Source of the DNA: Gammaproteobacteria bacterium
GTDB lineage: Bacteria; Pseudomonadota; Gammaproteobacteria; SZUA-140
NCBI GenBank assembly: GCA_046754065.1
Contig: JBHHVB010000007.1
Coordinates: 6,881 to 70,880, forward strand
Direction of reading: 5' to 3'
DNA length: 64,000 bases
Positions 6,954 through 32,860 of this stretch are shown in pieces. The translations under genes and the position numbers were made by a program. Position 1 is the stretch's first letter, and each line of letters starts with the position of its first letter. The notes beneath the pieces are model-generated. The model saw nothing but the letters and a program-made list of their open reading frames with translations, ran no database searches and was not told the origin of the DNA.

Positions 6954-7535
6954 ATGAAAGAATATATACTTATCCTTGTCAGTACCGTATTGGTCAATAA
7001 CCTTGTTCTGACCAAATTCCTCGGTCTGTGTCCGTTTATGGGCGTTTCAAAAAAGCTTGAAACGGCTACCGGCATGGCGCTGGCAACAACGTTTGTGTTG
7101 ACACTGTCCTCGATTTCCAGCTACCTGGCAAACACCTACCTGTTGGCACCATTGGGACTGGAATACTTAAGAACCATCACCTTTATCCTGGTAATCGCGG
7201 TTGTTGTGCAGTTCACCGAAATGGTTGTACACAAGACCAGTCCTTTGCTTTACCAGGTCCTGGGCATATTTTTACCATTGATTACCACCAATTGTGCCGT
7301 TTTAGGTGTCGCGTTACTTAACGTACAGCAAGAGCATGGGTTTCTTCATTCCGCATTTTATGGCTTTGGAGCCTCGATTGGCTTTTCGTTAGTGCTGATT
7401 TTATTCGCGGCCATGCGGGAACGCATCACCGTCGCCGACGTACCTGTTGCGTTCCGGGGACCCGCCATTGCATTAGTCACCGCGGGTTTAATGTCACTGG
7501 CATTTATGGGATTCTCCGGTCTGGTCAGGGGATAA
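6954..7535 (+). CDS. rnfA: Rnf electron transport complex subunit A
   Basis: [32 protein letters not shown]... matches RnfA/RsxA. First gene of the conserved rnfABCDGE order. Confidence 0.93.
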
Positions 7536-7541
7536 CCTTAG

Positions 7542-8093
7542 ATGATCACAGCTATTATCGCATTGACAGCGCTCGCCCTTGTTTTCGGCCTGATTCTGGG
7601 ATTTTCGGCCATACGATTCAAGGTTGAAGGCGATCCTTTGGTCGAGAAAATTGATTCGGTATTACCTCAAACTCAATGCGGCCAATGTGGCTACCCCGGC
7701 TGCCGTCCTTACGCAACCGCCATTGCCAATGATGAAGCAGACATTAACCAGTGCCCCCCGGGTGGAGAGGTAACGATCCATGCGTTAGCCGATTTGCTGG
7801 ACCGCGATCCCAAGCCCCTCAATCCTGAAAACGGCGAGATCAAACCCAAAATGGTCGCTATCATTGATGAACCGGTCTGCATTGGCTGCACACTATGCAT
7901 CCAGGCCTGCCCGGTTGATGCCATTCTTGGTGCAGCCAAACAAATGCACACCGTTATTGAAAAGGAGTGCACCGGTTGCGAATTGTGTGTCGCACCATGC
8001 CCGGTAGACTGCATCGAAATGATCCCGATTAAAACCGACATTCTGACCTGGAAATGGCCGTATCCCGATCAACAAAAAGAGGTACGGGCATGA
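7542..8093 (+). CDS. rnfB: Rnf complex subunit B (Fe-S ferredoxin)
   Basis: [13 protein letters not shown] plus two 4Fe-4S ferredoxin motifs ([24 protein letters not shown]). Collinear with E. coli RsxB. Confidence 0.93.
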
Positions 8094-9667
8094 GTCTCGC
8101 GCAGTCCAAATCAGGGAAAAGGCGTCTTTGGTCATTCAATGGCGGAATACACCCGGTGCAAAACAAGGAGTTTTCGAATCAGACTCCATGCATGCCTGCG
8201 TCATTACCAACAGTACTTAAGTTGCCATTACACCAGCATATCGGTGCACCTGCGATATCAATAGTGAACATTGGCGACGATGTTTTAAAGGGACAAATGA
8301 TTGCGAAGGCCAAGGGCTATGTCAGTGCGCCGGTTCACGCCCCCACGTCGGGCAAGGTTATCGACATTGGAAATTACCCAATCCCTCATCCTTCCGGACT
8401 CGATGCCCCCTGTATCGTGATTAAACCCGATGGCAAGGACAAATGGGGAAACAGGCCCAGCGTTGATCATTACGAAGATATTGATCCGAGTTCATTGCGC
8501 AACATCATTCGTGACGCAGGCATTGTCGGCCTGGGCGGGGCCGGTTTCCCCTCGTTTATCAAACTTAATCCTGGCCCGGGGAAGGTAGTCGACACACTAA
8601 TTCTAAATGGCGTCGAATGCGAACCCTATATAACCTGTGATGATCGCCTCATGCAGGAAAGAGCAGACGAAATCATCGGTGGCGCAAAAATTATTCAGCA
8701 TGCTATTAAGGCCAGGCAATGTGTCATCGCAATTGAGGATAACAAACCACAGGCCTTTAAAACAATGTGCATGACCGCTGAAGACGAGGCTGGCATTGAT
8801 GTCGTACAAGTACCTACCTGCTATCCTCAAGGTAGTGAAAAACAACTGATACAGGTGATCACTGGCAAAGAGGTACCTCGAAATGGACTGGCTATCCATG
8901 TTGGCGTTGTATGCCAGAATGTTGGCACCGCAGCCGCTGTCTATCGTGCCATTGAGCACGGAGAACCCCTCATCTCCAGATTCGTCACCATTACCGGCAG
9001 TGGTGTTAAACGGCCCGGAAATATGGAAGTACTCATTGGAACACCCATCAACGAACTCATTAACCAGTGCAATGGTGACATTTCGTCAATTACACGCCTC
9101 GTAATGGGTGGCCCCATGATGGGATTCGCACTCAAAAACATCGATATACCTGTTATAAAAACGACCAACTGCATTCTTGCAGCGACAAAGGACGACCTGC
9201 CCCCGTATCAGCCCGAAATGCCTTGCATACGCTGCGGATCCTGTACTGAGGTTTGTCCGGTTAGCCTGTTACCTCAGCAATTGTACTGGTATGCAAAAAA
9301 CAGGGAGCTGGACAAGGCACAGGACCATCACCTGTTCGACTGCATTGAATGCGGATGCTGTTCCTTCGTTTGCCCTAGCCACATTCCACTAGTACAGTAT
9401 TATCGATACGCCAAGGGTGAAATCTGGATCCAGGAACGTGAAAAGGAAAAGTCCGATATCGCAAGACTACGTCACGATTTCAGACAACAAAGAATCGAGC
9501 GCGAAAAATCTGAACGAGATGCCAAACGAAAAATGAAAAAGGCTGCGGTCAGTAAAAATAGTCCTGACAATTCCAATAAAGCGGAAATTCAGGCTGCCCT
9601 GGACAGAACAAAGGAAAAAAAACAGGCCCTGCAAAACACAGATAATGAAAGTTCTGAACAAACATAG
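8090..9667 (+). CDS. rnfC: Rnf complex subunit C
   Basis: NADH/FMN-binding RnfC domains with 4Fe-4S motifs [12 protein letters not shown] and [15 protein letters not shown] 8090 overlaps the rnfB stop (ATGA), so start set there rather than at the upstream track start. Confidence 0.9.
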
Positions 9668-9679
9668 ACCGAATTATAG

Positions 9680-10762
9680 ATGACATTTTTCACGCCAAGC
9701 TCGCCACATATCCAGCGACCCGAATCTGTGACAACGGTAATGTTGAGGGTCATCTATGCGTTGACTCCCGGTATTGCCGCCTATGTATGGTATTTCGGCT
9801 GGGGCATTGTGATAAACATTTTGCTTGCCTGCATCGTTGCATTAATTTGTGAATCTAGCGTTTTAACTTTAAGACGCAAACCGGTTTTGCCATTTCTGAC
9901 CGATGGAAGCGCGATTGTTACCGCAATGTTATTAGCCCTGGCACTACCGCCGCTCTCGCCCTGGTGGCTGGTCACAATTGGCGTTGCATTCGCAATCATC
10001 ATCGCAAAACATCTCTATGGTGGACTGGGTTATAATCCATTTAATCCCGCAATGATCGGTTATGTAGTCTTACTTGTATCATTTCCACTGGAAATGACCA
10101 ACTGGATCGCACCGCAAATTCATCATGAATTTGACCTGGGGTTTCTCGATTCTGTTATTTTCGTGCTCACCAACCAGTTACCCGCTAACATCAGCTTTGA
10201 CGCGCTTAGTGAGGCAACTCCTCTTGATGCACTAAAAACAAATATTGGCCTGGGTAATACCGTTGAGGAAATTCGGGCGCAGTTAGGTATGAGCGCAGAG
10301 ATCAGCGAGTTACTGAGCATCACTCCTATTTTTGGAAAAATCGGTGGCATTGGGTGGGAATGGGTTAGTGGTGGCTTTCTGCTGGGTGGCTTGTGGCTTT
10401 TGTACAAAAGGGTCATTCAGTGGCAAATACCGATTTCAATGCTTGGTGCGCTCAGCCTGATTTCGCTGATATTTTTCATAATAAACCCTGATCAATACGC
10501 TTCACCCATTTTTCATCTTTTTAGTGGGGCGGCGATACTTGGCGCTTTTTTTATCGCAACCGACCCGGTTACTGCAGCGACTTCACCACCGGCAAGGATT
10601 ATTTATGGGGCCGGTATTGGTGTACTGACCTACGTTATCAGGACATGGGGCGGTTATCCTGATGGTATTGCATTTGCCGTATTGCTTATGAACATGACTT
10701 CTCCAACGCTCGATTATTATTTCAGGCCGAGAGTTTTTGGCCATGACCGTAGAGAGGAATAG
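9680..10762 (+). CDS. rnfD: Rnf complex subunit D
   Basis: PWWLVTIGVAFAIIIAKHLYGGLGYNPFNPAMIGYVVLLVSFP is nearly identical to the RsxD core. Confidence 0.92.
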   Translation: MTFFTPSSPHIQRPESVTTVMLRVIYALTPGIAAYVWYFGWGIVINILLACIVALICESSVLTLRRKPVLPFLTDGSAIVTAMLLALALPPLSPWWLVTIGVAFAIIIAKHLYGGLGYNPFNPAMIGYVVLLVSFPLEMTNWIAPQIHHEFDLGFLDSVIFVLTNQLPANISFDALSEATPLDALKTNIGLGNTVEEIRAQLGMSAEISELLSITPIFGKIGGIGWEWVSGGFLLGGLWLLYKRVIQWQIPISMLGALSLISLIFFIINPDQYASPIFHLFSGAAILGAFFIATDPVTAATSPPARIIYGAGIGVLTYVIRTWGGYPDGIAFAVLLMNMTSPTLDYYFRPRVFGHDRREE

Positions 10763-10763
10763 T

Positions 10764-11393
10764 ATGTTTCGCCACATGTTAATGACTGGCATACTGCTGG
10801 GTATTTTTGCGATAGTCGGCACCGGTATTGTGGCACTGACATTCGATAATACCAAAGAGAGAATCGCGAAAAACGAGCATGAGGCCTTGCTGAAAAGCCT
10901 GCAGGAACTTGTACCGCAACAACTTTATAATAACGACATTACCAGGGATAAAATATCGGTTTCAGCCAAAGAATTATTGGGAACCGATAAACCGGTAACC
11001 ATCTATCGGGCGCGGCTCAACCGCATACCTGTCGCTGCGATCATCTCCCCTGTTGCACCCGATGGGTATAACGGCCCGATGAAATTACTTGTAGCCATTC
11101 AATATGATGGTAATCTGATGGGAGTACGGGTTGTGTCACACAGGGAAACCCCTGGCCTGGGCGACAAGGTCGATTACGAACGCTCAAACTGGGTTGACGG
11201 ATTTAAGGGCTATTCCATTAAAAAAACCGCAAACCTGGGATGGAATGTAAAAAAAGATGGCGGCATCTTTGACCAGTTTACCGGTGCGACAATCACCCCA
11301 CGGGCAGTCGTCAAGGCAGTATATAATAGCCTGAAATTTTATCACTTGAATAGAAATCGAATTTTTAACACACGAGCAAGTATTAATGACTAG
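10764..11393 (+). CDS. rnfG: Rnf complex subunit G (FMN-binding)
   Basis: Start moved to ATG 10764, which has a strong AGAGAGGA SD 5 nt upstream. N-terminal TM followed by an FMN-binding domain. Confidence 0.85.
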
Positions 11394-12078
11394 TCAAAAC
11401 TTCAGACGAATAACTCAGGACGGGCTTTGGAGTAACAACCCCGCGCTAGTGCAAATACTGGGGTTATGTCCATTACTTGCCGTCACCAATTCAGTGGTTA
11501 ACGGCTTGGGTTTAGGGCTGGCAACCATGTTAACGCTGATTCTATCAAACGTTATCGTATCAATGATACGGCATTCCGTTCGACCAGAAATCCGCATCCC
11601 GGTATTTGTTCTGGTTATCGCTTCAATTGTGACGGCTATTGAGTTGGCTATAAATGCCTATTTTCACGAGTTATATAAAATCCTCGGAATCTTCATTCCA
11701 TTGATTGTAACCAACTGTTCCATCATCGCACGCGCTGAAGCATTTGCCTCCAAAAATCCTGTACTCCCGTCGTTTGTAGACGGATTCATGATGGGATTGG
11801 GATTCTTGCTGGTTCTGGTTGTACTCGGTTCTATTCGTGAAGTACTCGGGCAAGGTACACTCTTCTCCCAGGCGCACTTGATGTTTGGCGCCTCTGCTGA
11901 CTGGTTAACCATTACCGTTATCAGTGACTACAAGGGGTTTCTGTTAGCGATTCTTCCACCGGGTGCCTTTATCGGATTAGGTTTCATCATCGCTGGCAAG
12001 AATATTATTGATAACAGAAAACAAAAAAAAGTAATGGTATCCAGTTCTGCGCTGGCACATGTCGAAACACCCGACTAG
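11386..12078 (+). CDS. rnfE: Rnf complex subunit E
   Basis: [39 protein letters not shown] is collinear with E. coli RsxE. The stop codon TAG (12076-12078) lies inside the left inverted repeat of the adjacent MITE-like element. Confidence 0.92.
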
Positions 12079-12366: not shown

Positions 12367-12405
12367 ACCTGTGATGATTTATGCAGTTCAGTATTGTACT
12401 CCGGA

Positions 12406-13041
12406 ATGAATAATCAAAAACGACAGAAAATTTTCCAGCGATTAAAAGAAGAAAATCCGCACCCGACTACCGAACTCCTATACAAATCACCATTTGAATT
12501 ATTGATTGCCGTCATTCTTTCTGCACAAGCGACTGACAAAAGCGTTAACAAGGCTACAACAGTTCTATATAAAGTTGCTAACACACCCGAGAAAATATCC
12601 AGGCTGGGAATAACCGGTTTAAAAAAATATATCAAAACGATCGGTCTTTATAACAGCAAGGCGAGGAATATCATCAAAACCTGTCATATAATACAGGAGA
12701 AACACCAGGGTCAGGTACCTGTAAGCCGGGAAGCACTCGAGTCTTTACCCGGGGTTGGCCGAAAGACCGCGAATGTCATACTTAATACGGCGTTTGGTCA
12801 ACCGACCATCGCGGTTGACACACATATTTTCAGGGTTTCAAATCGAACAGGTCTCGCACCCGGCAAAACAGTGCTCGAGGTAGAAAAAAAATTGATTCGA
12901 TTTGTGCCAAATGAATACAAACAGGACGCGCATCATTGGCTCATCCTGCACGGTCGCTATACCTGTATCGCAAAAAAACCCAGGTGTGCCGCTTGCGTCA
13001 TTGAGGATTTATGTGAATTCAAAAAGAAAACTGTGGATTAA
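12406..13041 (+). CDS. nth: Endonuclease III
   Basis: ENPHPTTELLYKSPFELLIAVILSAQATD, LPGVGRKTANV (HhH-GPD) and a C-terminal CX6CX2CX5C cluster. Canonical position downstream of rnfE. Start at ATG 12406; the track start at 12394 is TTG. Confidence 0.9.
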   Translation: MNNQKRQKIFQRLKEENPHPTTELLYKSPFELLIAVILSAQATDKSVNKATTVLYKVANTPEKISRLGITGLKKYIKTIGLYNSKARNIIKTCHIIQEKHQGQVPVSREALESLPGVGRKTANVILNTAFGQPTIAVDTHIFRVSNRTGLAPGKTVLEVEKKLIRFVPNEYKQDAHHWLILHGRYTCIAKKPRCAACVIEDLCEFKKKTVD

Positions 13042-18252: not shown

Positions 18253-21177
18253 TTAATTCATCAATTCCGGTTTGGAAATTTTAAATCCTTGCGCATAGTC
18301 TACACCTAATGCTTGTAGTCTGGTATAGATAGCATTATTTTCCACGAATTCAGCAATCGTCTTGATACCCATGACATGACCAATATGATTGATAGACTCA
18401 ACCATCGCGCTATCTATCGGGCTTTCGGCAATCCCCCTGACAAATGAACCGTCAATTTTTAGATAATCAACCGGCATATTTTTCAGGTACGCAAAGGACG
18501 ACAAACCACTTCCAAAATCATCCAGCGCAAACAAGCAACCCATCTCCTTAAATTTCGCAATAAATTTAATTGCGCTACTCATATTTGCGATAGCAGCCGT
18601 TTCGGTGATCTCAAAACAAACATGCTGCGGTAATACGGCATTTGATTGAAATTCTTTTTCAACATAGGATATCAATTTTTCATCGCCAAGCGATGCGCCT
18701 GAAAGATTAATTGCAGCGATCATATTTTCTTTTTTCCATCCGTCGTATTCTGAAAACACACGCTTTATGACCCATCGGTCAATTAGTGGCATCAAATCGT
18801 ATCTCTCTGCTGCTGGAATAAACGCCATCGGATAAATATAATCACCATTGTAATCGTGCATCCGTATCAGCATCTCATGATATATTTTTTCCTGATTTTC
18901 TCTTCCCGGTTTAATTCCTCCCTGATTTTCCGTGCGAAGTGGCAGCACTGATTGATGAAATACACAAAACCGATCATCGTTTAGCGCCCTCTTTATCCTG
19001 GATACCCATTGCATTTCACCCTGACGACGCCTTAAATTGACATCATCTTCTTTATAAACATAAACCCGGTTGCGGCCCTTGTCTTTAGCTACATAGCACG
19101 CGGCATCGGCAGCACTCAACAAACCGGTCAAGCCCTCGCTTGCCTGATGTATTTCAACCAGGCCAATGCTCGCGCCAATCTCAAATGTCTTGTCCTGCCA
19201 GACAAACCTGAATTTCTTCACGGTCTGACATAATTTGGTTCCAATCGATAATGCCTGGTCAATTGAACACTCACCCAGCAAGACACCAAATTCATCCCCA
19301 CCTAATCGTGCTAACGTATCCCGTTCTCTTATCTGAGCCTGTATTAGCATGGAAAGTTGCCTTAACAACTCATCGCCCGCGACATGACCACAGGTATCGT
19401 TGACAATTTTGAATTGATCCAGATCAATGTAACAGAGCGCATGCTCATGCCCATCTTTTTTAGCATTCAGAATCATTAATTCGAGTATGCGCTCAAACTC
19501 ATGACGATTAATCAGCCCGGTTAATGCGTCATGTGTTGCCTGGTAGGAAAGTTTATGAGTCAGACCACGAATCTTAGTCACATCATGGAAAATCAGAACC
19601 GCCCCCATAACCTGATTGCTACGACCACGAATTGGCGCAGAGGTTGACTCAACAGCATACTCCTGACCACTCTGTCGGTTAATAATCAGGCCAACGGGAT
19701 AAGTAATGATACGACCATTTATCAGACTTGGGGCCACAATATCTTTAATCGGTTCCCTGGTTTCCTCGTTGACAACATTGAATACGTCTATGAGCAGTTC
19801 ACTTTCAGCTTCATCACATCCCCAACCCAAAATCTGTTCAGCAATCGGGTTCAAATACTCAACCCTGCCTGCAGAATCTGTCGTAATCACCCCATCCCCA
19901 ATCGATTTCAGCGTGACCTGTGCACGCTCTTTCTCAGCAAAAAGTGCCTCTTCTACGAGTTTTCTCCGGGTAATATCGGTCCTGATTCCAACATACTGGT
20001 AGGGTTTATTTAACTCATCCGTAAATGGAACGATCGTCGACTCAACCCAGAACGTACTACCATCCTTGCGACGATTCTTGATTTCGCCGTTCCACACGTG
20101 TCCTCTACTAATTGTTTTCCACATCTCAGAGAAATAGGAGCGCGGATGATAATGCGAATTTAACAGTCTATGATTACTCCCAATTAACTCTTCGCGTGAA
20201 TATTGACTTGTCTCACACATTTTCTCGTTTGCATACGTAATATTCCCGTTTACATCTGAAATAGTGACTATCGAGTGTTGATCCATCGCAAATTTCTGGT
20301 AGTTGAGATCATCGACCGTTTTTTGAAGCAGCTTTTCGCTGTGCATAAGCTTAAGCATGATGTAAGCAATATAGATGATCAGTAGAATCGCAACAACATA
20401 CAATCCCAACCGGTATGCGTTAGCCAGTCGAGATCGGACCTCGTATGACCGACCATAGGCCTCGCCTAGACTATTTACGTGTAATGGAATCGGCAATAGC
20501 GAAAGTTCAGTAATCAACTGGTCTACAACGGGTTTCTGGGAAACCACCGTATTGGCATGTTTTATCAGATGTTCTATATCTTGACGTACAAGCTCCGGAT
20601 ACAGATCAAGATCCGCAACCAGTTCACTGATATGCGATTGCACATGAATCTTAAAATTGTCATCCCCGGTAATATTATAACTTAATGTATCACTCAAAAA
20701 GTCTGACAAGTTGGTAATTCTCGCCGTTTCAAATTGCACCAGTGATAAATGAGTAACGATATCATCGGCAAGCACTGGCAGATAGTGAAGCGAATTTCTC
20801 AGAATTGCGTTTCTGGATTTATAGTCTTCAAGCAGGCCTTTCTTTCGGACGATCAATACATCCAGCTGTTCAATTTCCCTATCAACATCACTTAAACCAT
20901 TTTTGTAAATTGCAAATTGGCTTTCCTTGAATAGCCCCTGCCTTTCTATTAAAGATTTTATGCCGCTGACAAGGGTATCGTAATGCAGCAATAATTCATT
21001 TCGTGATTTTAGAAGGTCCTGGTTTAACGTAGCATCCGCCTGCTTGATAAGATGGACATTGTTTAAAACCTGATTATGTCTGACAAAATTCACAGATCTG
21101 GATTTAATAAATAGTCCCGTAAGAACAAGGATGACCAGGATACCGATGGTTAGCTGCCCTGTTCGTTTTTTTATCAT
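18253..21177 (-). CDS. Membrane sensor diguanylate cyclase/phosphodiesterase (periplasmic domain between two TM segments, PAS domains, GGDEF, EAL)
   Basis: TM1 LTIGILVILVLTGLFI, ~240-aa periplasmic region and TM2 LGLYVVAILLIIYIAYIML. PAS repeats. GGDEF with I-site (RERDTLARLGGDEFGVLL). EAL domain with variant motif YHEMLIRM and conserved ALDDFGSGLSSFAYL. Confidence 0.88.
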   Translation of the reverse strand: MIKKRTGQLTIGILVILVLTGLFIKSRSVNFVRHNQVLNNVHLIKQADATLNQDLLKSRNELLLHYDTLVSGIKSLIERQGLFKESQFAIYKNGLSDVDREIEQLDVLIVRKKGLLEDYKSRNAILRNSLHYLPVLADDIVTHLSLVQFETARITNLSDFLSDTLSYNITGDDNFKIHVQSHISELVADLDLYPELVRQDIEHLIKHANTVVSQKPVVDQLITELSLLPIPLHVNSLGEAYGRSYEVRSRLANAYRLGLYVVAILLIIYIAYIMLKLMHSEKLLQKTVDDLNYQKFAMDQHSIVTISDVNGNITYANEKMCETSQYSREELIGSNHRLLNSHYHPRSYFSEMWKTISRGHVWNGEIKNRRKDGSTFWVESTIVPFTDELNKPYQYVGIRTDITRRKLVEEALFAEKERAQVTLKSIGDGVITTDSAGRVEYLNPIAEQILGWGCDEAESELLIDVFNVVNEETREPIKDIVAPSLINGRIITYPVGLIINRQSGQEYAVESTSAPIRGRSNQVMGAVLIFHDVTKIRGLTHKLSYQATHDALTGLINRHEFERILELMILNAKKDGHEHALCYIDLDQFKIVNDTCGHVAGDELLRQLSMLIQAQIRERDTLARLGGDEFGVLLGECSIDQALSIGTKLCQTVKKFRFVWQDKTFEIGASIGLVEIHQASEGLTGLLSAADAACYVAKDKGRNRVYVYKEDDVNLRRRQGEMQWVSRIKRALNDDRFCVFHQSVLPLRTENQGGIKPGRENQEKIYHEMLIRMHDYNGDYIYPMAFIPAAERYDLMPLIDRWVIKRVFSEYDGWKKENMIAAINLSGASLGDEKLISYVEKEFQSNAVLPQHVCFEITETAAIANMSSAIKFIAKFKEMGCLFALDDFGSGLSSFAYLKNMPVDYLKIDGSFVRGIAESPIDSAMVESINHIGHVMGIKTIAEFVENNAIYTRLQALGVDYAQGFKISKPELMN

Positions 21178-22199
21178 AGTCGTTCGCCGTTGTATTCACC
21201 CGTAAGGGTGTGCAAGAATTTTGCGATTAAATCAACATCGCCAACAGATATTTTTCTTCCCAATTGGTAGGAGGCCATCACCATGATGGCTTGTTCAATC
21301 GTTTCTGCAAACCCATTATGGAAATAAGGCGCCGTCAGCGTTACGTTTCTCAAACTAGGCACCCTGAATCTGTAACGGTCTTCCTCTCTACCGGTCACAT
21401 TGAACCGGCCATAATTTACAGTAGATAAATCCTCTCTATCAAAGTAATAGTCCTGCATCACACCAAGCACCTGATAAAGGTTGCCTCCAACATTTGCTCC
21501 TTGATGGCAGGATACGCATCCATATACCTTGAATAACTGGTATCCCCTTTTCTCGTCCTTACTTAACGCATCATTGTCACCATTCAGGTATTGATCGAAT
21601 CTGGAATTGGGCGTAATTAATGACCGTTCAAATTCCATTATGACTGCTATAACATTCTCCCTGGTTACACCGTCCTTAAATATCATCCGAAACTGACGCA
21701 ATAAATCACTATCACCATTTATAACCTCGATAATGTGAGCCCAGGATGAATCCAGTTCGGTTGGAGAGATTAGTGACTCGGCAATTTGTTGTTCGACTGT
21801 GTCAGCTCGACCATCCCAGTAATAACTTGCATTCAACGCGCTATTAAATACGGTTGGGGTATTAATCTCCCCCAGATTGCCATGGTCTCCTACCGGCACC
21901 AATTCCCTGATTGCTCCCCCGGTTTCAAGTTGATGGCATGTTTCGCAAGAGGACTCCCCATCAGTGGATAATCGTGCATCGCCAAAAAGTCTTTTTCCGA
22001 GCGCTACTTGCTCAACCTTTAGCGAAGATGGATATTCTATGGGCAATATGGGTTCGGGAGACGACGAAGGTCGATCCGCGATTCGAGATTTATGCAATGA
22101 GATGGGTGGCGATTCTTCATCGTCGTTCAGCACTAGCATTGCAGCAGCAACCAACACAACAACCATTATCAGTATTGAAAAATGGATATTTTGCTTCAT
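21174..22199 (-). CDS. Di-haem cytochrome c peroxidase (CcpA/MauG family)
   Basis: Signal peptide. Two haem-binding motifs CETCHQ and CVSCHQ, and a conserved PSLRNVTLTAPYFHNG segment. The stop overlaps the start of the downstream sensor by 4 nt. Confidence 0.88.
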   Translation of the reverse strand: MKQNIHFSILIMVVVLVAAAMLVLNDDEESPPISLHKSRIADRPSSSPEPILPIEYPSSLKVEQVALGKRLFGDARLSTDGESSCETCHQLETGGAIRELVPVGDHGNLGEINTPTVFNSALNASYYWDGRADTVEQQIAESLISPTELDSSWAHIIEVINGDSDLLRQFRMIFKDGVTRENVIAVIMEFERSLITPNSRFDQYLNGDNDALSKDEKRGYQLFKVYGCVSCHQGANVGGNLYQVLGVMQDYYFDREDLSTVNYGRFNVTGREEDRYRFRVPSLRNVTLTAPYFHNGFAETIEQAIMVMASYQLGRKISVGDVDLIAKFLHTLTGEYNGERL

Positions 22200-23710: not shown

Positions 23711-26700
23711 CTATTTTTGTGGGGTTTTCTTTGCTGATCTTCGTAATCTGGATTGTAGACGACGAGCCATTTCACCAAACATCTCAGTCTGCGTGGGGTG
23801 CGGATGAATCGCACCGGCCACTTGCTCCAGCGTCATTTGGCCGGCCACCATCATCACCGCTTCGCCGATTAACGTATCGGCGTGATCAGCAAGAAAGTGT
23901 ACCCCCATGATGCGTCGGGATTTCTTATCGACAACCATCTTGATTAATCCTGAGGTTTCATTGGTAATCATTGCCTTTGCATCGATACTCATCGGCATTT
24001 TAACCTCAACGGCGTCGATACCACTGGATTTAGCCTGCGCAATCGATAAACCAACAAATGCCGCCTGAGGTCGGGTAAATATCACGCCGCAGTCTTTGTC
24101 CTGATCATATTTTGCTATCTCCCCCAGAATAGTGGACGCTGCAACCCGACCTTGTTGTCCAGCTGTGTGCGCCAACATCAAGCCACCATTGACATCTCCA
24201 ACGGCGAATATATGCGGGACGTTAGTACGGCAACTTGGATCGACCGGTATTATGCGGCCATCTGAACGAACTCCTGCCGGCTCAAGCTTAAGTGCTTCAA
24301 GGACCGGGCGTTTACCGGTTGCGACAATGACATATTCACATTCACAAGCGTGGTTTTGATCTTCGCTATCTTGATAATTCACAACCATTTTGCCGGGCTT
24401 ACCGTGAATACCATCAATTTTCGCGTTCGTCAGGACTTTAAGCCTTGGTTCGTTGTTAAGAATAGTCGTTAACTGCCCGGCAATCTCTGATTCTACCTCT
24501 GCCAGAATTCGCTCCTGCACTTCCAGCAATACTACATCAGCGCCAAAATCATGAAAAATCTGCGCCATTTCAACGCCGATTGCACCACCTCCAATCACTA
24601 CGAGCTTTTTAGGTGCTGATGGCAAGCTCCATACCGTATCAGAGGTCAGCACACCGCCACTCTCCAGTCCGTCATAAGCACCCTCTATTGGAGGCACAAA
24701 TGGTGGAGCGCCGGTTGCAATAACTGCACAGCCAAAACTGATGCTATCTCCGGCCAAACCATCACCAGTTGTTGAACGGCGATGGGGATCATCCTGATTA
24801 CCACTTGTATCGACGAGTAATTGATGATCATTCTGAAATGATGCGTACCCCTGAATAACCTTGATTTTAACGCCTTTGTCGGTCTTTAACGCCATCTCTC
24901 CACGCGTTTCCAGTACTGATCGGCGAGTCCGTTCAAGTGACTTCCAGTCTAATTTTACCTTTGTTGTGCCCTCAACGCCCAGGTGTTGATCATGCGCCCT
25001 GTCTCGTATCCGATCAGCTGCTGCACGCCATGCCTTTGAGGGTATACATCCGCGCCACAGGCACTCCCCCCCCGGGAACGGCGCATCGTTCACCATCGCA
25101 ACGTTAACTCCGTGTTCAGCCAGCTCTCGGGCGCAATCCTCTCCTCCCGGACCACCACCAATCACAACAACATCATAATCCCAGTTGCCTTCCGGAATGA
25201 CTGAAACACCACCAATCCAGGTCTCTGGTTGCTCAATAAACCGCTTTAACGAATTGAGATACATCGCAACATGCGCCCCGTTGACAACCCGATGGTCAGC
25301 GGTAACAGTTAAGGGCATACCATTCGTCCCGGCTGATGAAATCGCAAGAATCGCAGCGATACCGGGGGTCGGAATGGCATCAAAGCCACTAACCCCCATC
25401 ATCCCCATATTTGAAACCATAAATGTCGGATTGGCGTATTCATCGGGAGATAATCGTCTGGTTCGGGCACGGGATACCAAATCCTGCCAATCACGACCCA
25501 GCTCATCCAGTTGCCTTGACTCGCAGTTTCTTAAAACCGGTACAACCAGGCTGCCATCGTCAGCCGCGACTGCCATACCAATATCAACATTGTCTCTTTC
25601 AATCAGTTTGTCTACAGGTTGATATGCCCAGTTGATCTGGGGGTGTTCCTGAATTGCCAGCGCGCAAGCCTTTGCAATCGCAATGGTCACTGAAACACCG
25701 TGTTTCTTCGCTGTAGCAATCAACCTGTCAGGCATAGCATTGACGGTTACATGGAAGGTGGGCATGGTTAGCGAGCCTGACATGTTCTTACTAATAGCAC
25801 GCTCCATCGCTGTCATCTTTCTCCCGGCACCCGGCACCTCTGCCTCGATAAACGGCGTAGTTGCGGTCGTTGATTGCGGCTGCGTCCTGAGAACATCGGC
25901 TGCAACAATTTCACCTGAGGGGCCTGAACCATTCACGGCATTCAGATTAACACCCTGCTCACCAGCTAATTTTCTTGAATAAGGTGTAGCCTGCTTACCT
26001 GCTGGGCGCGGAGCTGGACCAGCGTCGGTTGAGTTCGCTGTTATTCCGGATGACTCCTGGCTAATAGATGTCGCAGACCCGGATAATGATTGTCCGGCCT
26101 GTGCAGACACCACGGACGATACAGTATCTGTTTTCACCTGATCCTGATCTTCAACCAGGTACGCCATCGCACCACCCACAGGAATGACACAATCCACCTC
26201 GGCTAAAGGACCCGACAGGTAACCTTCACGAAATACTTCAACATCCATGATTGCCTTGTCAGTTTCTACCTGGGCAACAATATCACCCCTGGAAATTTTC
26301 TCTCCTGGCTGCCTCGTCCATTCCACAACCAGACCTTCTGTCATCGTGTCAGACAGTTGCGGCATTTTTATCGTATGAACAACGCCATCGGGTTCCTGAC
26401 TATCCGGGGTTTCCGGGCCCCGGCCTTCTGTGATATTTTTGTCTTCTACTTCTGGAGCAGGACTGGATGTAGCTGGAGTTCCCGCATCAACAACTTCACC
26501 CTGATTGGCAACTATGAACGCGATCGCCTCGCCTACCGGAATAGTGCTATCGACCTCAACCAGAGGTCCGGATAAAAATCCGTCTCGAAAAACCTCGACA
26601 TCCATGATCGCTTTATCGGTTTCGACGGTTGCGACAATTTCTCCACGGTTTACCTTGTCGCCGATATTCTTTTCCCAGCTGATCAATACGCCCTCAGTCA

Positions 26701-26746
26701 TCGTGTCAGACAGTTGCGGCATTTTGATCGTGTATTTATCAGACAT
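23711..26746 (-). CDS. Fused dihydrolipoamide acyltransferase (E2; two lipoyl domains, E3-binding domain, catalytic domain) and dihydrolipoamide dehydrogenase (E3) in a single 1011-aa ORF
   Basis: Two lipoyl domains (VETDKAIMDVEV, twice). A peripheral-subunit-binding domain (ATPYSRKLAGEQGVNLNAVNGSGPSGEIVAADV). An E2 catalytic domain with DHRVVNGA. Then a ~12-aa join directly into a full E3 (DYDVVVIGGGPGG, redox disulfide GGECLWRGCIPSK, NAD site VVIGGGAIGVEMA, C-terminal HPHPTQTEMFGE). Confidence 0.85.
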   Translation of the reverse strand: MSDKYTIKMPQLSDTMTEGVLISWEKNIGDKVNRGEIVATVETDKAIMDVEVFRDGFLSGPLVEVDSTIPVGEAIAFIVANQGEVVDAGTPATSSPAPEVEDKNITEGRGPETPDSQEPDGVVHTIKMPQLSDTMTEGLVVEWTRQPGEKISRGDIVAQVETDKAIMDVEVFREGYLSGPLAEVDCVIPVGGAMAYLVEDQDQVKTDTVSSVVSAQAGQSLSGSATSISQESSGITANSTDAGPAPRPAGKQATPYSRKLAGEQGVNLNAVNGSGPSGEIVAADVLRTQPQSTTATTPFIEAEVPGAGRKMTAMERAISKNMSGSLTMPTFHVTVNAMPDRLIATAKKHGVSVTIAIAKACALAIQEHPQINWAYQPVDKLIERDNVDIGMAVAADDGSLVVPVLRNCESRQLDELGRDWQDLVSRARTRRLSPDEYANPTFMVSNMGMMGVSGFDAIPTPGIAAILAISSAGTNGMPLTVTADHRVVNGAHVAMYLNSLKRFIEQPETWIGGVSVIPEGNWDYDVVVIGGGPGGEDCARELAEHGVNVAMVNDAPFPGGECLWRGCIPSKAWRAAADRIRDRAHDQHLGVEGTTKVKLDWKSLERTRRSVLETRGEMALKTDKGVKIKVIQGYASFQNDHQLLVDTSGNQDDPHRRSTTGDGLAGDSISFGCAVIATGAPPFVPPIEGAYDGLESGGVLTSDTVWSLPSAPKKLVVIGGGAIGVEMAQIFHDFGADVVLLEVQERILAEVESEIAGQLTTILNNEPRLKVLTNAKIDGIHGKPGKMVVNYQDSEDQNHACECEYVIVATGKRPVLEALKLEPAGVRSDGRIIPVDPSCRTNVPHIFAVGDVNGGLMLAHTAGQQGRVAASTILGEIAKYDQDKDCGVIFTRPQAAFVGLSIAQAKSSGIDAVEVKMPMSIDAKAMITNETSGLIKMVVDKKSRRIMGVHFLADHADTLIGEAVMMVAGQMTLEQVAGAIHPHPTQTEMFGEMARRLQSRLRRSAKKTPQK

Positions 26747-26877: not shown

Positions 26878-27864
26878 TTATCTGGATTTACCAAACAATC
26901 CCAAAACGGCGTCAACTACTTCATTCGCATTGGGTATCGCAGCCTTTTCCAGCTTATGATTAAATGGAATAGGTACGTTTCGTGCGGACACGCGTCGTGG
27001 CGGTGCATCCAGTTCAAAGAAGCAACCTTCGTTTATGATTGCCATCACCTCCGAACCAACACCAACCGGTGCCTCAGCTTCTTCAGTGATGACTGCCTTA
27101 TGTGTTTTTGTAACCGATGCAACAATGCCTTCGCGGTCCAACGGATTTAACGCATACAGGTCGACAATTTCCGCCTCTATACCATACTGTCTGGAAAGCA
27201 TTTCTGCCGCCTGCAAACACCAATGAACTGAAATATTATAACCAAACAGCGTAACATCGTTACCCCTGCGAACAATCTCGGACCCCTCCAGCGGGTGAAA
27301 AAACTCCTCATCGGGCACTTCGCCTTTCAGGTTATACATCAGTTCGTGTTCATTAATAAAAACGGGATCATCGCATCGCACTGCCGACTTCAACAGTCCG
27401 TATGCCTGACGAGGTGTAGAGGGTGTTACAACGCGTAAACCCGCTATACCCATAAATACTTTTTCCATTCTCGCGGAATGTTGTGCCCCTAACTGATGAG
27501 CGGTACCACCTGGTGAACGAATTACAATAGGCGCAGTCAACTGACCGCCCGACATATATCGCACCTTGGCAGCGGTATTAATGATTTGATCTGTTGCCAA
27601 CCACACAAAATTGACCGACATAATTTCAATGATTGGCCTGACACCCACATATGAAGCGCCAATGCCCAGTCCAGTAAAGCCATTTTCTGATATAGGTGTA
27701 TCAATAATCCGTTCGGAACCATATTTTTCATACAGTCCTTGCGTAGCCTTATAGGTACCGCCAGCGATCCCAATATCTTCACCCATCGCAATGACAAGCG
27801 GGTCATTTTCCATTTCCTCATCATGGGCTCGACGAATCGCTTCCCAATACATTAAATCAGCCAT
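26878..27864 (-). CDS. 2-oxo acid (pyruvate/acetoin-type) dehydrogenase E1 component beta subunit
   Basis: Transketolase-like pyrimidine-binding and C-terminal domains (MGEDIGIAGGTYKATQGL, RVVTPSTPRQAYGLL). Start overlaps the E1alpha stop. Confidence 0.88.
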   Translation of the reverse strand: MADLMYWEAIRRAHDEEMENDPLVIAMGEDIGIAGGTYKATQGLYEKYGSERIIDTPISENGFTGLGIGASYVGVRPIIEIMSVNFVWLATDQIINTAAKVRYMSGGQLTAPIVIRSPGGTAHQLGAQHSARMEKVFMGIAGLRVVTPSTPRQAYGLLKSAVRCDDPVFINEHELMYNLKGEVPDEEFFHPLEGSEIVRRGNDVTLFGYNISVHWCLQAAEMLSRQYGIEAEIVDLYALNPLDREGIVASVTKTHKAVITEEAEAPVGVGSEVMAIINEGCFFELDAPPRRVSARNVPIPFNHKLEKAAIPNANEVVDAVLGLFGKSR

Positions 27865-28856
27865 TAGTTAATCGCCCCCGTAACAAAGGGATCGTTTTCT
27901 GCGAGAACATATTTTTCCAGCTCATCGACAGACGGCTCTGGAGATTCATCTGCATATTTAATTATCTCTTCTTCAATTTGTTTCAGTATACTCTTATCCA
28001 TCAGCTGATATTCTTCTGTAGTTAAATCTCCACTTTCAATCAAGCGATCCCTGAGAATATTGAGTGGATCACGATCTGACCATTCCTTCTCCTCATCTTT
28101 GGAGCGATAAGCGTTTGAATCAGACATCGAGTGCCCGCGATATCGATACGTCATGAGCTCCAGGAAATAAGGACCCTTGCCCGACCGAACATGATCAACT
28201 GCAATCTTTGCCGCGTCGTAAACAATTTCCACATCCTGTCCGTCAACCTGCGCTGACGGAATATCATATCCACTGACACGTTTGTACTGGTCAAGCACCG
28301 CGGTCGAACGTTCAATGCGGGTTCCAATACCATACAAATTGTTTTCGCAAACAAACATCACAGGTAGCTCCCATACCTTTGCCATATTCAGGGTTTCATG
28401 AAATGTGCCCTGATTGTTCGCAGCATCCCCGAGAAAGCAGATCGAGATATCATCTCCCCCTTTCATCTTGATGCCTTTGGCAATGCCAGCCGCTAATGGA
28501 AAAGGACCACCAACCAGCGAATACCCTCCCATGAATCGATGCTCAACGTCGAAAATATGCATGGATCCTCCACGTCCCTTGCTGGAGCCTGTTTCTTTTG
28601 CATAGAGCTCTGCCATGACCACTTTAGGATCTGAACCACATTTGATGGCATGTACATGGTCTCTATAACCGGTAATGACATAATCACGCCCAGGTCTTGC
28701 GGCCTCAAGTACGCCATGCGCACATGCCTCCTGCCCTGAGTACAAATGTAAAAAGCCACCGATTTTTCTTTCCACATACGCTTCATAACACCGCTCTTCA
28801 AATCGCCTGGCGAACAACATTTCATTCAGGAGACGTTTTCTGTCTGAAGTATTCAT
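27864..28856 (-). CDS. 2-oxo acid (pyruvate/acetoin-type) dehydrogenase E1 component alpha subunit (TPP-dependent)
   Basis: GFLHLYSGQEA and the TPP-binding motif GDAANNQGTFHETLNMAKVWELPVMFVCENNLYG. Confidence 0.88.
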   Translation of the reverse strand: MNTSDRKRLLNEMLFARRFEERCYEAYVERKIGGFLHLYSGQEACAHGVLEAARPGRDYVITGYRDHVHAIKCGSDPKVVMAELYAKETGSSKGRGGSMHIFDVEHRFMGGYSLVGGPFPLAAGIAKGIKMKGGDDISICFLGDAANNQGTFHETLNMAKVWELPVMFVCENNLYGIGTRIERSTAVLDQYKRVSGYDIPSAQVDGQDVEIVYDAAKIAVDHVRSGKGPYFLELMTYRYRGHSMSDSNAYRSKDEEKEWSDRDPLNILRDRLIESGDLTTEEYQLMDKSILKQIEEEIIKYADESPEPSVDELEKYVLAENDPFVTGAIN

Positions 28857-30810: not shown

Positions 30811-31812
30811 ATGAGTGAAACATCCCCCCTGGTCGAAGCACAAGAGCAATTTATTGCAGCCGTTCCATTTCGAAGCACAGGCTCAGAAATCGTCAGCCTG
30901 GCGGATGCCTGTGGCCGCACCTTATACCGCGATATTAAATCACCCACCGCATTGCCCCCGTATAATCGGGCAATTGTCGAGGGTTTTCTGGTGCGAACCG
31001 AGGATACGGCTGATGCGAGTGAAGAATCAAAAACAGGTTTTACCATTATCGGCAAGGTCAACCCGGGAGATGCTGAATGTGGAAACCCTGAGCCTGGCCA
31101 GGCAATCCAGGTAGTAACAGGCAGTCTTGTCCCTGATGGCCCGTATTCGATCGTAAGAATGTGGGAAGCCGATATTGATAACGATCATTTTTCAATCTCG
31201 CGTCCATTTCCACCGCGTTTTTTCATTGAAGACAAAGGATGCGATCTGGAACTTGACGCCACTGCCATTACTGCAGGCGCTATCATCACCCCTCAATCGA
31301 TTGGGACCATCGCGTCAATGGGTTTAAATGAAGTTGAATTATCAAAAAAACCAGTCGTTACTGTCTTCGCCTCGGGGGATGAACTGGTCCCTTACACCGA
31401 TCCGGTAACACCCGGCACGATGAGAGATAGTAATTCGATCATGCTGGCTTCAGCAATTAATGCGAACGGTGCAACAGCAAAGATAGCCGGCATTATGAGT
31501 GATGACTTTGAGCAATTTTCATCTGAATTGGGTGAGTCCCTGTCCCGATCGGACATGGTAGTCATCTCGGGAGGGACTGCCGTTGGCGGGCGTGATTTTA
31601 TATCTGATCTGGTTAAGGGAGCTGGCCAAGTCATTGTAGACGGTGTCCCGATGCGTTCAGGTCGCCCGTTGATTATGGGTGTTAGTGACAACAAACCCAT
31701 TGTATGTGTCGCTGGTCACCCGCCAGAAGCACTCCGAGGATTCAATTTATTTGGTGTCGCTGCGATCAACAAACTACTGGGAAACCACAAACCACTACCT
31801 GCTGACGATTGA
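30811..31812 (+). CDS. MoeA-family molybdopterin-binding protein, short form (lacks C-terminal domain)
   Basis: MoeA N-terminal domain plus MoCF-biosynthesis domain (TVFASGDELVPYTD, ISGGTAVGGRDF). At 333 aa it is about 70 aa shorter than canonical MoeA. Confidence 0.65.
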   Translation: MSETSPLVEAQEQFIAAVPFRSTGSEIVSLADACGRTLYRDIKSPTALPPYNRAIVEGFLVRTEDTADASEESKTGFTIIGKVNPGDAECGNPEPGQAIQVVTGSLVPDGPYSIVRMWEADIDNDHFSISRPFPPRFFIEDKGCDLELDATAITAGAIITPQSIGTIASMGLNEVELSKKPVVTVFASGDELVPYTDPVTPGTMRDSNSIMLASAINANGATAKIAGIMSDDFEQFSSELGESLSRSDMVVISGGTAVGGRDFISDLVKGAGQVIVDGVPMRSGRPLIMGVSDNKPIVCVAGHPPEALRGFNLFGVAAINKLLGNHKPLPADD

Positions 31813-31819
31813 TACGCTG

Positions 31820-32860
31820 GTGCAATCTATAACGCTCACACGACCGGATGACTGGCACGTACATTTACGTGATGGCCCACTGCTTGGCTTGACGGTTAAA
31901 CACTGCGCCCAGCGATTCGCTCGCGCCATTGTCATGCCGAACCTGGCAGACCCGGTAACGGCGACCATCAAGGCGCTTCAATACAGAGAACGTATCATTG
32001 CTTCGATACCTGAAGGTCTATCGTTTACTCCATTAATGACACTTTATCTAACGGACAATACAACGGCAAAAGAAATTAAAACTGCCAGGGATAGTGGCTA
32101 TATTAAGGCCGTGAAATTATATCCCTCTGGTGCCACAACCAATTCAAACTCAGGTGTAACCAGCATCGACAAGGTACTTAAAGCCATTGCAGCTATTGAA
32201 GAAAACAACCTGTTACTGCTTATACATGGTGAGGTAACCGATGATAAAACCGATGTCTTCGACCGGGAAAAGGTATTTATTGATAAAATCCTGGCTCCGC
32301 TGATTGATAGATTCCCGGGGCTGCGCATCGTACTGGAACATATTACGACAAAAGACGCCGTTGAGTTTGTCTCGTCAGCGCCGTCAACCGTTGCCGGAAC
32401 CATTACCCCTCATCATCTTTTGCTAAACCGGAATGCTATTCTTGTTGGTGGTATACACCCTCACTATTATTGCTTGCCTGTTCTCAAGCGTGAGTCCCAT
32501 CGCGAAGCGTTAATTTCTGCTGCCACCAGCGGTAATCCCAAATTTTTTCTGGGCACTGATAGCGCCCCACATGATGTAAGCAGAAAAGAATCGGCTTGCG
32601 GCTGCGCGGGTATTTATTCTTCTCATGCAGCATTAGAACTCTATGCAGAGGTATTTGACCAGGTTGGAAAACTCGACAAACTGGAGGCTTTTGCCAGCCA
32701 CTTTGGCGCTGATTTTTATGGCTTACCCAGAAACACCGATGAAATCACTCTAACCAGAAAAGACTGGTCTGTTTCTGAAGAACTTTCGTTTGAAACGGGT
32801 AAAATAGTCCCATTTCGCAGCAATGAACTGATTCATTGGCAACTCGACCTATCAGATTAG
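31820..32860 (+). CDS. pyrC: Dihydroorotase, class II
   Basis: [35 protein letters not shown] and CGCAG are collinear with E. coli PyrC. The track ORF starts at 31679 and overlaps the upstream gene by 134 nt. The start was placed at in-frame GTG 31820 (9 aa before RPDDW). No clear SD, so the start is uncertain. Confidence 0.85.

Follow-up and report, generated by a model that had tools for sequence, protein, structure and literature searches.

A conserved in-frame fusion of an E2 acyltransferase to dihydrolipoamide dehydrogenase in a probable pyruvate dehydrogenase operon of Gammaproteobacteria

The fusion gene and its domain layout

The window analysed here is a stretch of 64,000 nucleotides (nt) of contig JBHHVB010000007.1 from an uncultured gammaproteobacterium, the closest named relatives of which are Thiohalomonadales, Thiohalobacter, Thiogranum, Sulfuriflexus and Granulosicoccaceae. 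Translation of both strands showed positions 23711-26746 to hold, on the minus strand, a single unbroken frame of 1011 codons and a terminal stop, whereas the same interval of the plus strand is packed with stops; the frame begins with ATG, with an AAGGTG Shine-Dalgarno sequence 6 nt 5′ of the start. This open reading frame (ORF) encodes two lipoyl domains, a peripheral subunit-binding domain (PSBD), the catalytic core of a 2-oxoacid dehydrogenase complex acyltransferase (E2) and a full dihydrolipoamide dehydrogenase (E3), in that order. The original prediction for this DNA had proposed the same 1011-amino-acid (aa) arrangement; Pfam agrees with it, and all of the motifs quoted in its support are present, including QPETWIGGVSVIPEGNW at residues 506-522 and GGECLWRGCIPSK at residues 559-571. 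The features of the ORF are:

23711..26746, minus strand: complete pdhC-like ORF, 1011 aa plus stop, lipoyl-lipoyl-PSBD-E2 catalytic-E3 (translation, Pfam, NCBIfam)
26516..26731, minus strand: lipoyl domain 1, residues 6-77, predicted lipoyl-lysine K45 in ETDKA (Pfam PF00364 Biotin_lipoyl, 1.3e-26)
26156..26374, minus strand: lipoyl domain 2, residues ~125-197, predicted lipoyl-lysine K164 (Pfam PF00364, second stretch)
25889..25990, minus strand: PSBD, residues 253-286 (Pfam PF02817 E3_binding, 1.7e-10)
25217..25819, minus strand: E2 acyltransferase domain, residues 310-510, with S445, DHRVVNGA and the C-terminal PETW 3-10 helix (Pfam PF00198 2-oxoacid_dh, 2.1e-46)
25274-25297, minus strand: DHRVVNGA motif, residues 484-491
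25178..25216, minus strand: E2-E3 connector IGGVSVIPEGNWD, residues 511-523
23714..25177, minus strand: E3 dihydrolipoamide dehydrogenase domain, residues 524-1011 (Pfam PF07992, PF00070, PF02852; TIGR01350)
25046-25072, minus strand: redox disulfide C562/C567 in GGECLWRGC
23783-23806, minus strand: HPHPTQTE with the His/Glu dyad, residues 981-988

The domain E-values and the 1011-codon open frame are far in excess of chance. The PSBD match (PF02817) reaches 41.4 bits against a cut-off of 23.7 and sits between the lipoyl domains and the core; in the AlphaFold2 (AF2) model this segment forms two short helices, and a β-barrel at residues 122-198 corresponds to lipoyl domain 2. Within E3, Pyr_redox_2 matches residues 524-866 (1.8e-61) and Pyr_redox_dim residues 887-993 (5.2e-27), with the expected motifs for the flavin cofactor FAD (GGGPGG, 530-535), the redox disulfide (C562-x4-C567), NAD (GGGAIG, 719-724, with E742) and the catalytic dyad (H983...E988). 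The top NCBIfam models are those for dihydrolipoyl dehydrogenase (TIGR01350, residues 524-997) and for the acetyltransferase of pyruvate dehydrogenase (PDH; TIGR01349, residues 126-508).

Conservation of the fusion in related bacteria

Conservation was examined in the 120 best database homologues, to which the residue counts given below refer, and in a set of 81 loci consisting of the best 80 of at least 557 species-representative genomes that encode a relative, together with one Logan re-assembly. A protein identical to the query (P0001, 100%) is recorded from an NCBI metagenome-assembled genome (MAG) named 'Gammaproteobacteria bacterium', and an identical ORF in the same gene neighbourhood is present in the independent Logan assembly of run SRR29324594. 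The 120 homologues are all full-length (996-1140 aa), with 65-70% identity and 96-100% query coverage. Fusions of E2 to E3 were found in 80/80 of the best genomes, in each of which the match to the query starts at residue 1-5 and reaches residue 977 or beyond. A stop-free frame of more than 1000 residues spans the junction in 81/81 loci. On this evidence the ORF is judged to be a genuine, complete, in-frame E2-E3 fusion, and the same fusion to be present in at least 80 related sulfur-bacterium genomes.

The carriers among the 80 loci include one named cultured isolate, Thiohalophilus thiocyanatoxydans DSM 16326, and MAGs assigned to Sulfuriflexus, Thiohalobacter, Thiogranum, Thiohalomonadaceae, Granulosicoccaceae, Chromatiales and, in one case, Thiobacillus; the homologues also include proteins encoded by two isolate genomes, those of Sulfuriflexus mobilis and Ectothiorhodospiraceae bacterium 2226. 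One member of the fusion family (P0002, 1140 aa) has three lipoyl domains, not two (alignment A1).

That adjacent E2 and E3 genes were merged by a lost stop or a 1-nt indel, in assembly or in sequencing, had been raised as a concern when the fusion was first proposed. Such genes are often adjacent, and the window derives from a MAG. Against this, the ORF is identical in the independent assembly, and a stop at the equivalent position, which would be expected in relatives with separate genes, was found in 0/81 loci. Moreover, the connecting region is itself under constraint: mean column identity is 0.74 over residues 501-520 and 0.95 over residues 521-540, compared with 0.07-0.30 for the three inter-domain linkers, and W510, P518, G520 and W522 are invariant. 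Nor is there room for an intergenic region, as only ~5-6 residues separate the C-terminal helix of E2 from the N-terminal motif of the E3 clade described below. Given the identical independent ORF, the stop-free relatives and the conserved junction, we regard the probability of an artefact as close to negligible.

A protein considered as a candidate unfused E2 (P0121, 536 aa, matching residues 1-523) ends ...IPEGNWD in the middle of that motif, and was read as truncated by the end of its contig.

Anatomy of the E2-E3 junction

The E2 domain aligns to the pyruvate-type E2 (E2p) of human and of Azotobacter vinelandii as far as their C-termini, with W510 of the query aligned to residue 645 of 647 in the human protein, i.e. 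2 residues short of its natural C-terminus. The E2 core is therefore complete, including the C-terminal hydrophobic 3-10 helix. It is through this helix that trimers contact one another in all classical cores, in a 'knob and socket' fashion (Bruch et al., bioRxiv 10.1101/2020.07.24.212647). Its sequence is kept in the query (PETW, with W510 invariant), and the AF2 model has a helical turn at residues 507-509; since E3 follows, however, the helix is not C-terminal.

The first β-strand of E3 begins at residue 524 in the AF2 model, and the end of E2 at W510 thus leaves a spacer close to the ~12 residues originally estimated. Much of this spacer belongs to E3. The IPEGxWDY motif is shared with P0122, a stand-alone E3 (...VIPEGDWD), and with P0124, a lipoyl-E3 protein (...AAGDWDY); from this comparison, the IPEGxWD part of the connector belongs to the N-terminus proper to this E3 clade, and the true tether is therefore only ~5-6 residues long. 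The tether reads GGVSV in the query and GPxGPA in most relatives.

Spacing between E2 and E3 is the same in 64/76 loci and 8-26 residues longer in 7/76. In Thiohalophilus thiocyanatoxydans DSM 16326 (L080) the connector runs to ~35 residues of low-complexity, Ala/Pro/Ser-rich sequence. The connector is also much longer in two further loci (L046 and L006). Because linker length varies among loci, a rigid, fixed geometry of E2 relative to E3 is not an absolute requirement. AF2 models are confident within each domain: those of the full-length protein have a mean predicted local distance difference test score (pLDDT) of 85.8, with 83-97 at the junction, and those of residues 300-1011 a mean pLDDT of 89.1, a predicted template-modelling score (pTM) of 0.70 and a connector pLDDT of 72.

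An atypical E3 clade

The redox loop of E3 had been singled out as atypical from the outset, and this is borne out: GGECLWRGC is present, and the surrounding segment, GGECLWRGCIPSK, is invariant across the fusion family. The loop marks a distinct E3 clade whose members occur both stand-alone and fused to other domains. P0122 is a true stand-alone E3 of 487 aa with this loop, 58% identical to the fused E3, and is encoded (L082 5001-6464; L083 1949-3412) divergently beside an operon of canonical composition, E1alpha-E1beta-E2(437 aa)-E3(472 aa), which includes an E3 itself. A reading of P0122 as a fragment starting at an internal Met was rejected, as the contigs show a real stand-alone E3; nor does P0122 represent an orthologous split of the fusion operon. 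In the metagenomic protein P0124 (797 aa), a lipoyl domain and a GGECLWRGC-clade E3 share one chain with a CMD/AhpD-like domain at the C-terminus; by analogy, P0124 could unite the mycobacterial Lpd-lipoyl-AhpD peroxidase relay in a single polypeptide.

A rough neighbour-joining tree of the E3 domains, built without support values, places P0122 and P0124 immediately outside the fusion family. Identity to the query does not exceed ~38% for any other stand-alone E3 or ~42% for unfused E2s, and the fusion family collapses to one cluster at 50% identity. This isolation, together with the single cluster and the position in the tree, suggests that the fusion is old within the family.

The distinctness of the clade raises the question of whether the E3 domain is mainly the lipoamide dehydrogenase of its complex, or instead hands electrons from the lipoyl arm to a different acceptor, as happens in the Lpd-lipoyl-AhpD peroxidase relay, or acts as a dimerising structural cross-link while a separate Lpd serves the cell. 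A specialised role of this kind would accord with the low identity to ordinary stand-alone E3s (P0122 and P0124 excepted), with the occurrence of the clade as an additional gene beside an operon already holding an E3 and as a fusion to lipoyl and CMD/AhpD-like domains, and with a score under the TIGR01350 cut-off. We nonetheless consider it very unlikely. All of the residues needed for lipoamide dehydrogenase chemistry are invariant, the acidic residue of the NAD site is present, the fold matches that of Lpd with a template-modelling (TM) score of ~0.9, and the operon has no other E3, without which the lipoyl arms could not be re-oxidised.

Operon context and assignment to pyruvate dehydrogenase

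The two subunits of a heterodimeric E1 are encoded directly upstream of the fusion ORF on the same strand, the stop of the E1alpha gene overlapping the start of the E1beta gene:

27864..28856, minus strand: E1 alpha gene, 330 aa (Pfam E1_dh; TIGR03182 PDH_E1_alph_y, 406.5 against a cut-off of 393.85)
26878..27864, minus strand: E1 beta gene, 328 aa (Pfam Transket_pyr, Transketolase_C; NF006667, 367.9 against a cut-off of 321)

An operon with E1alpha and E1beta had been predicted, and the two genes, adjacent and co-oriented, are indeed kept upstream of the fusion in most loci (E1beta in 75/81, E1alpha in 69/81). Downstream, the operon is followed by argG; on its upstream side it is preceded by pepA, which is transcribed divergently. 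Rfam identified no RNA elements in the window, including the 131-nt gap between E1beta and pdhC, and a promoter and terminator scan gave only background level. The rest of the 64-kb window holds no other lpd, gcv, OGDH or lipoate genes.

The predicted catalytic residues of both fused enzymes are all conserved: S445, D484, H485, R486, C562, C567, H981, H983, E988 and both GxGxxG motifs are invariant, the lipoyl-lysine motif ETDKA is conserved at both K45 and K164, that of lipoyl domain 1 without exception in alignment A1 and almost so in alignment A2, and the acidic residue of the NAD site, E742, is likewise invariant. The Asn of DHRVVNG, which is matched in A. vinelandii E2p (DHRVINGA, 1eaa), is not unusual. 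In five related loci the Asn/Asp position of DHRxx(D/N)G is occupied by another residue, namely Tyr in L010, L036, L052 and L075 (DHRVVYG) and Ser in L066 (DHRVVSG). The best solved matches of the E2 part are PDH E2p structures. For the E3 part, Foldseek gives TM scores of 0.87-0.91 to solved lipoamide dehydrogenases, the best solved match being Geobacillus stearothermophilus E3 (1ebd).

Taken together, the ORF very probably specifies a PdhC-type subunit that brings both activities to a pyruvate dehydrogenase complex, and is transcribed in one unit with the genes of an alpha2beta2-type E1. Several observations weigh against this assignment. Both halves score below the equivalog cut-offs of their models, E3 only marginally, with 386.1 bits against 408.8 for TIGR01350, although this is by far the top-scoring model, and E2 with 308.2 bits against 445 for TIGR01349, which is still the best E2 model; the PDH assignment consequently rests on the E1 subunits. 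The E2 lacks a 12-14-residue hairpin of human and A. vinelandii E2p, the CxxxxC loop of E3 is atypical (CLWRGC), and the monomer model does not predict the relative orientation of E2 and E3 with confidence, as judged from its pTM and connector pLDDT. That an E3 of this clade (P0122) is encoded on its own next to a canonical operon already complete with E1, E2 and E3 also hints that the role of the clade may not be identical to that of a housekeeping Lpd. Finally, biochemical evidence for the fusion protein or for any family member was not found in the retrievable literature.

The hairpin is missing throughout the fusion family, at residues ~462-491 (window positions 25274-25360, minus strand), where the human and A. 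vinelandii proteins carry it after the 'ILAI' strand and ahead of the DHR motif.

It is conceivable that the complex is another E1alpha/beta-type 2-oxoacid dehydrogenase, or an acetoin dehydrogenase, with a fused E2-E3. The E2 part lies under the cut-off of every E2 equivalog model, its catalytic domain carries the family-specific hairpin deletion, five related loci have Tyr or Ser for the Asn of DHRVVNG, and sequence cannot give substrate specificity with certainty. We regard this as very unlikely, since both E1 subunits score above their PDH cut-offs, that of the PDH_E1_alph_y equivalog for E1alpha and that of the PDH E1beta subfamily for E1beta, TIGR01349 and PDH E2p are respectively the best model and the best solved matches for E2, and the context is of the housekeeping type (argG, pepA) with no aco genes. 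The initial description of the operon as 'acetoin/PDH-like' can accordingly be retained in its PDH part, by virtue of the E1alpha score, while the acetoin part is dropped.

Comparison with other fusions and with known complexes

The fusion of a whole E2 core to E3 had been thought rare. The present counts do not support this: at least 557 species genomes encode a relative, the best 80 being full-length fusions throughout, and at least 10 other 50%-identity clusters hold an E2 core with an E3. Among the representatives of other 50%-identity clusters, sixteen match both E2 core and E3, the match stopping at or close to query residue 650 in two, and the order lipoyl-PSBD-E2 core-E3 was confirmed by Pfam in nine (P0128, P0129, P0131, P0135, P0137, P0161, P0167, P0169 and P0210). 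These nine distant fusions (838-928 aa) have the same domain order in one chain as the query, but are only 28-35% identical to it, have one lipoyl domain and carry canonical redox loops of the GGxCLNxGC type. Ten distant fusions passed the domain filter for the E3 tree, in which their E3 domains are scattered among stand-alone E3s (again a rough neighbour-joining tree without support values). The scatter suggests that E2-E3 fusions arose independently several times.

A precedent reportedly exists in Thiobacillus (Acidithiobacillus) ferrooxidans, for which a 1997 study by Powles and Rawlings in Microbiology is said to have described a pdhABC cluster of E1alpha, E1beta and a ~980-aa lipoyl-E2 core-E3 ORF. 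The window shares with that PdhC, as reportedly described, both gene order and domain order, in a single ORF 3′ of pdhA/pdhB, a likeness of arrangement. T. ferrooxidans is a chemolithoautotrophic sulfur/iron oxidiser, whereas the window organism is an uncultured gammaproteobacterium. Acidithiobacillus is absent from the best 80 of the at least 557 genomes. The A. ferrooxidans genome paper lists exactly three PDH genes, AFE3068-70 (PMC2621215), which is consistent with E1alpha, E1beta and E2-E3. The existence of the fusion is thus, we believe, neither new nor surprising to specialists: it is of a conserved and already sequenced kind, and one that we believe to be already published.

Compared with the canonical PDH complexes with an alpha2beta2-type E1 (Geobacillus stearothermophilus; mitochondrial/alphaproteobacterial), the query shares the 'y'-type E1alpha/E1beta, the lipoyl domains, the PSBD, a core resembling chloramphenicol acetyltransferase (CAT), the DHR motif, the C-terminal hydrophobic 3-10 helix and a standard E3 fold. 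It differs in the ~12-14-residue hairpin deletion of its E2 core and in the redox loop (CLWRGC instead of CLNVGC) and in the attachment of E3, which docks non-covalently on the PSBD of the canonical complexes but is covalently linked to the E2 C-terminus in the query, at an E2:E3 ratio of 1:1. The lipoyl-E3 fusions (for example Neisseria P64K, PDB 1bhy/1ojt) likewise place a complex component and E3 in one chain, but have only a lipoyl domain before E3, with neither PSBD nor oligomerising E2 core, and hence no problem of assembly symmetry; many proteins of 560-600 aa, composed of an N-terminal extension plus E3, were among the matches. In actinobacterial OdhA an E2o-like domain is fused to E1o, whereas the partner in the query is E3. 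In the trimeric E2p of corynebacteria the C-terminal helix is re-oriented by a three-residue insertion (Bruch et al.), whereas the query keeps PETW, which is then followed by E3.

Proposed mechanism and particle assembly

In the mechanism that we propose, E1alpha/beta would dock on the PSBD (253-286) and reductively acetylate lipoyl-K45 or lipoyl-K164. The swinging lipoyl domain would carry the acetyl group to the E2 site (H485 of DHRVVNGA, S445), giving acetyl-CoA, and the resulting dihydrolipoyl arm would be re-oxidised by E3 of the same particle (C562/C567, FAD and an H983/E988 dyad contributed by the partner chain of an E3 dimer), the electrons passing from E3 to NAD+. Within this scheme we infer pyruvate as the substrate, the docking of E1 on the PSBD, the dimerisation of E3 and the fixed 1:1 E2:E3 stoichiometry.

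The PSBD, usually thought of as the docking site of E3, had been suggested to be redundant once E3 is covalently attached. In complexes with an alpha2beta2-type E1, the PSBD binds both E1 and E3 in Geobacillus stearothermophilus, and E1 only on the mammalian E2. As E1 must still be recruited, the PSBD is needed in the fusion as well, and by analogy the retained domain is most likely the E1 dock; the suggested redundancy is therefore not supported.

The E3 His/Glu dyad acts across the dimer interface, and the E3 domain would therefore have to dimerise even when fused to an E2 core. Structure matches from the sequence search and from Foldseek included no solved structure with an E2 core and E3 in one chain. 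Two arrangements of the particle are conceivable: E3 dimers might hang from the two-fold edges of a classical 24- or 60-mer, or they might cross-link E2 trimers. With the dimerising E3 placed only ~5-6 residues after the helix that makes the trimer-trimer contact, we tentatively entertain the latter, in which E3 dimers would cross-link or cap the E2 trimers at a strict 1:1 ratio, giving a trimer-dimer fusion cage or lattice, with E3 on the two-fold axes and the PSBD given over wholly to E1, in place of a bare 24/60-mer core. To our knowledge, no solved 2-oxoacid dehydrogenase complex shows a core of this kind.

A selective rationale for the fusion is plausible. Chemolithoautotrophs with few other lipoate-dependent complexes would need no shared, diffusible E3, such that tethering would cost nothing and would guarantee E3 on the core; the same argument, from an unshared E3, was reportedly made in the T. 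ferrooxidans study.

Other features of the window

Several further loci in the window were recorded:

1801-3492, minus strand: 563-aa dCTP deaminase-like ORF interrupted by an intein splicing domain (Pfam PF22769 and PF14890)
6954-12078, plus strand: Rnf-type electron-transport operon, with RnfC and RnfD identified
12394-13041: endonuclease III-like gene, after the Rnf operon
18253-22199, minus strand: MauG/MbnH-like di-haem cytochrome c peroxidase (341 aa), overlapping by 4 nt a 974-aa DAHL-PAS-PAS-GGDEF-EAL signalling protein
30811-31812, plus strand: 333-aa MoeA-like ORF with MoeA_N and MoCF_biosynth, without the C-terminal MoeA domain
31679-32860, plus strand: amidohydrolase ORF, overlapped by the MoeA-like ORF by ~130 nt

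The di-haem peroxidase and the DAHL-PAS-PAS-GGDEF-EAL protein may be translationally coupled. The MoeA-like ORF could be a truncated or frameshifted gene, or one with a mis-set start.

Significance

Proteins of the fusion family bear public names such as 'FAD-dependent oxidoreductase', 'dihydrolipoamide dehydrogenase' and 'pyruvate dehydrogenase', and no NCBIfam model matches the fusion protein at its curated cut-off. As a consequence, a whole PDH E2 core goes unrecognised in at least 80 sulfur-oxidising gammaproteobacterial genomes. The potentially surprising aspect of the family is confined to its quaternary architecture. With E2 and E3 fixed at 1:1, and with a three-fold and a two-fold oligomeriser in one chain, the fusion family constitutes a natural experiment, and the structure of a family member could reveal a new way of building the core of a 2-oxoacid dehydrogenase complex.

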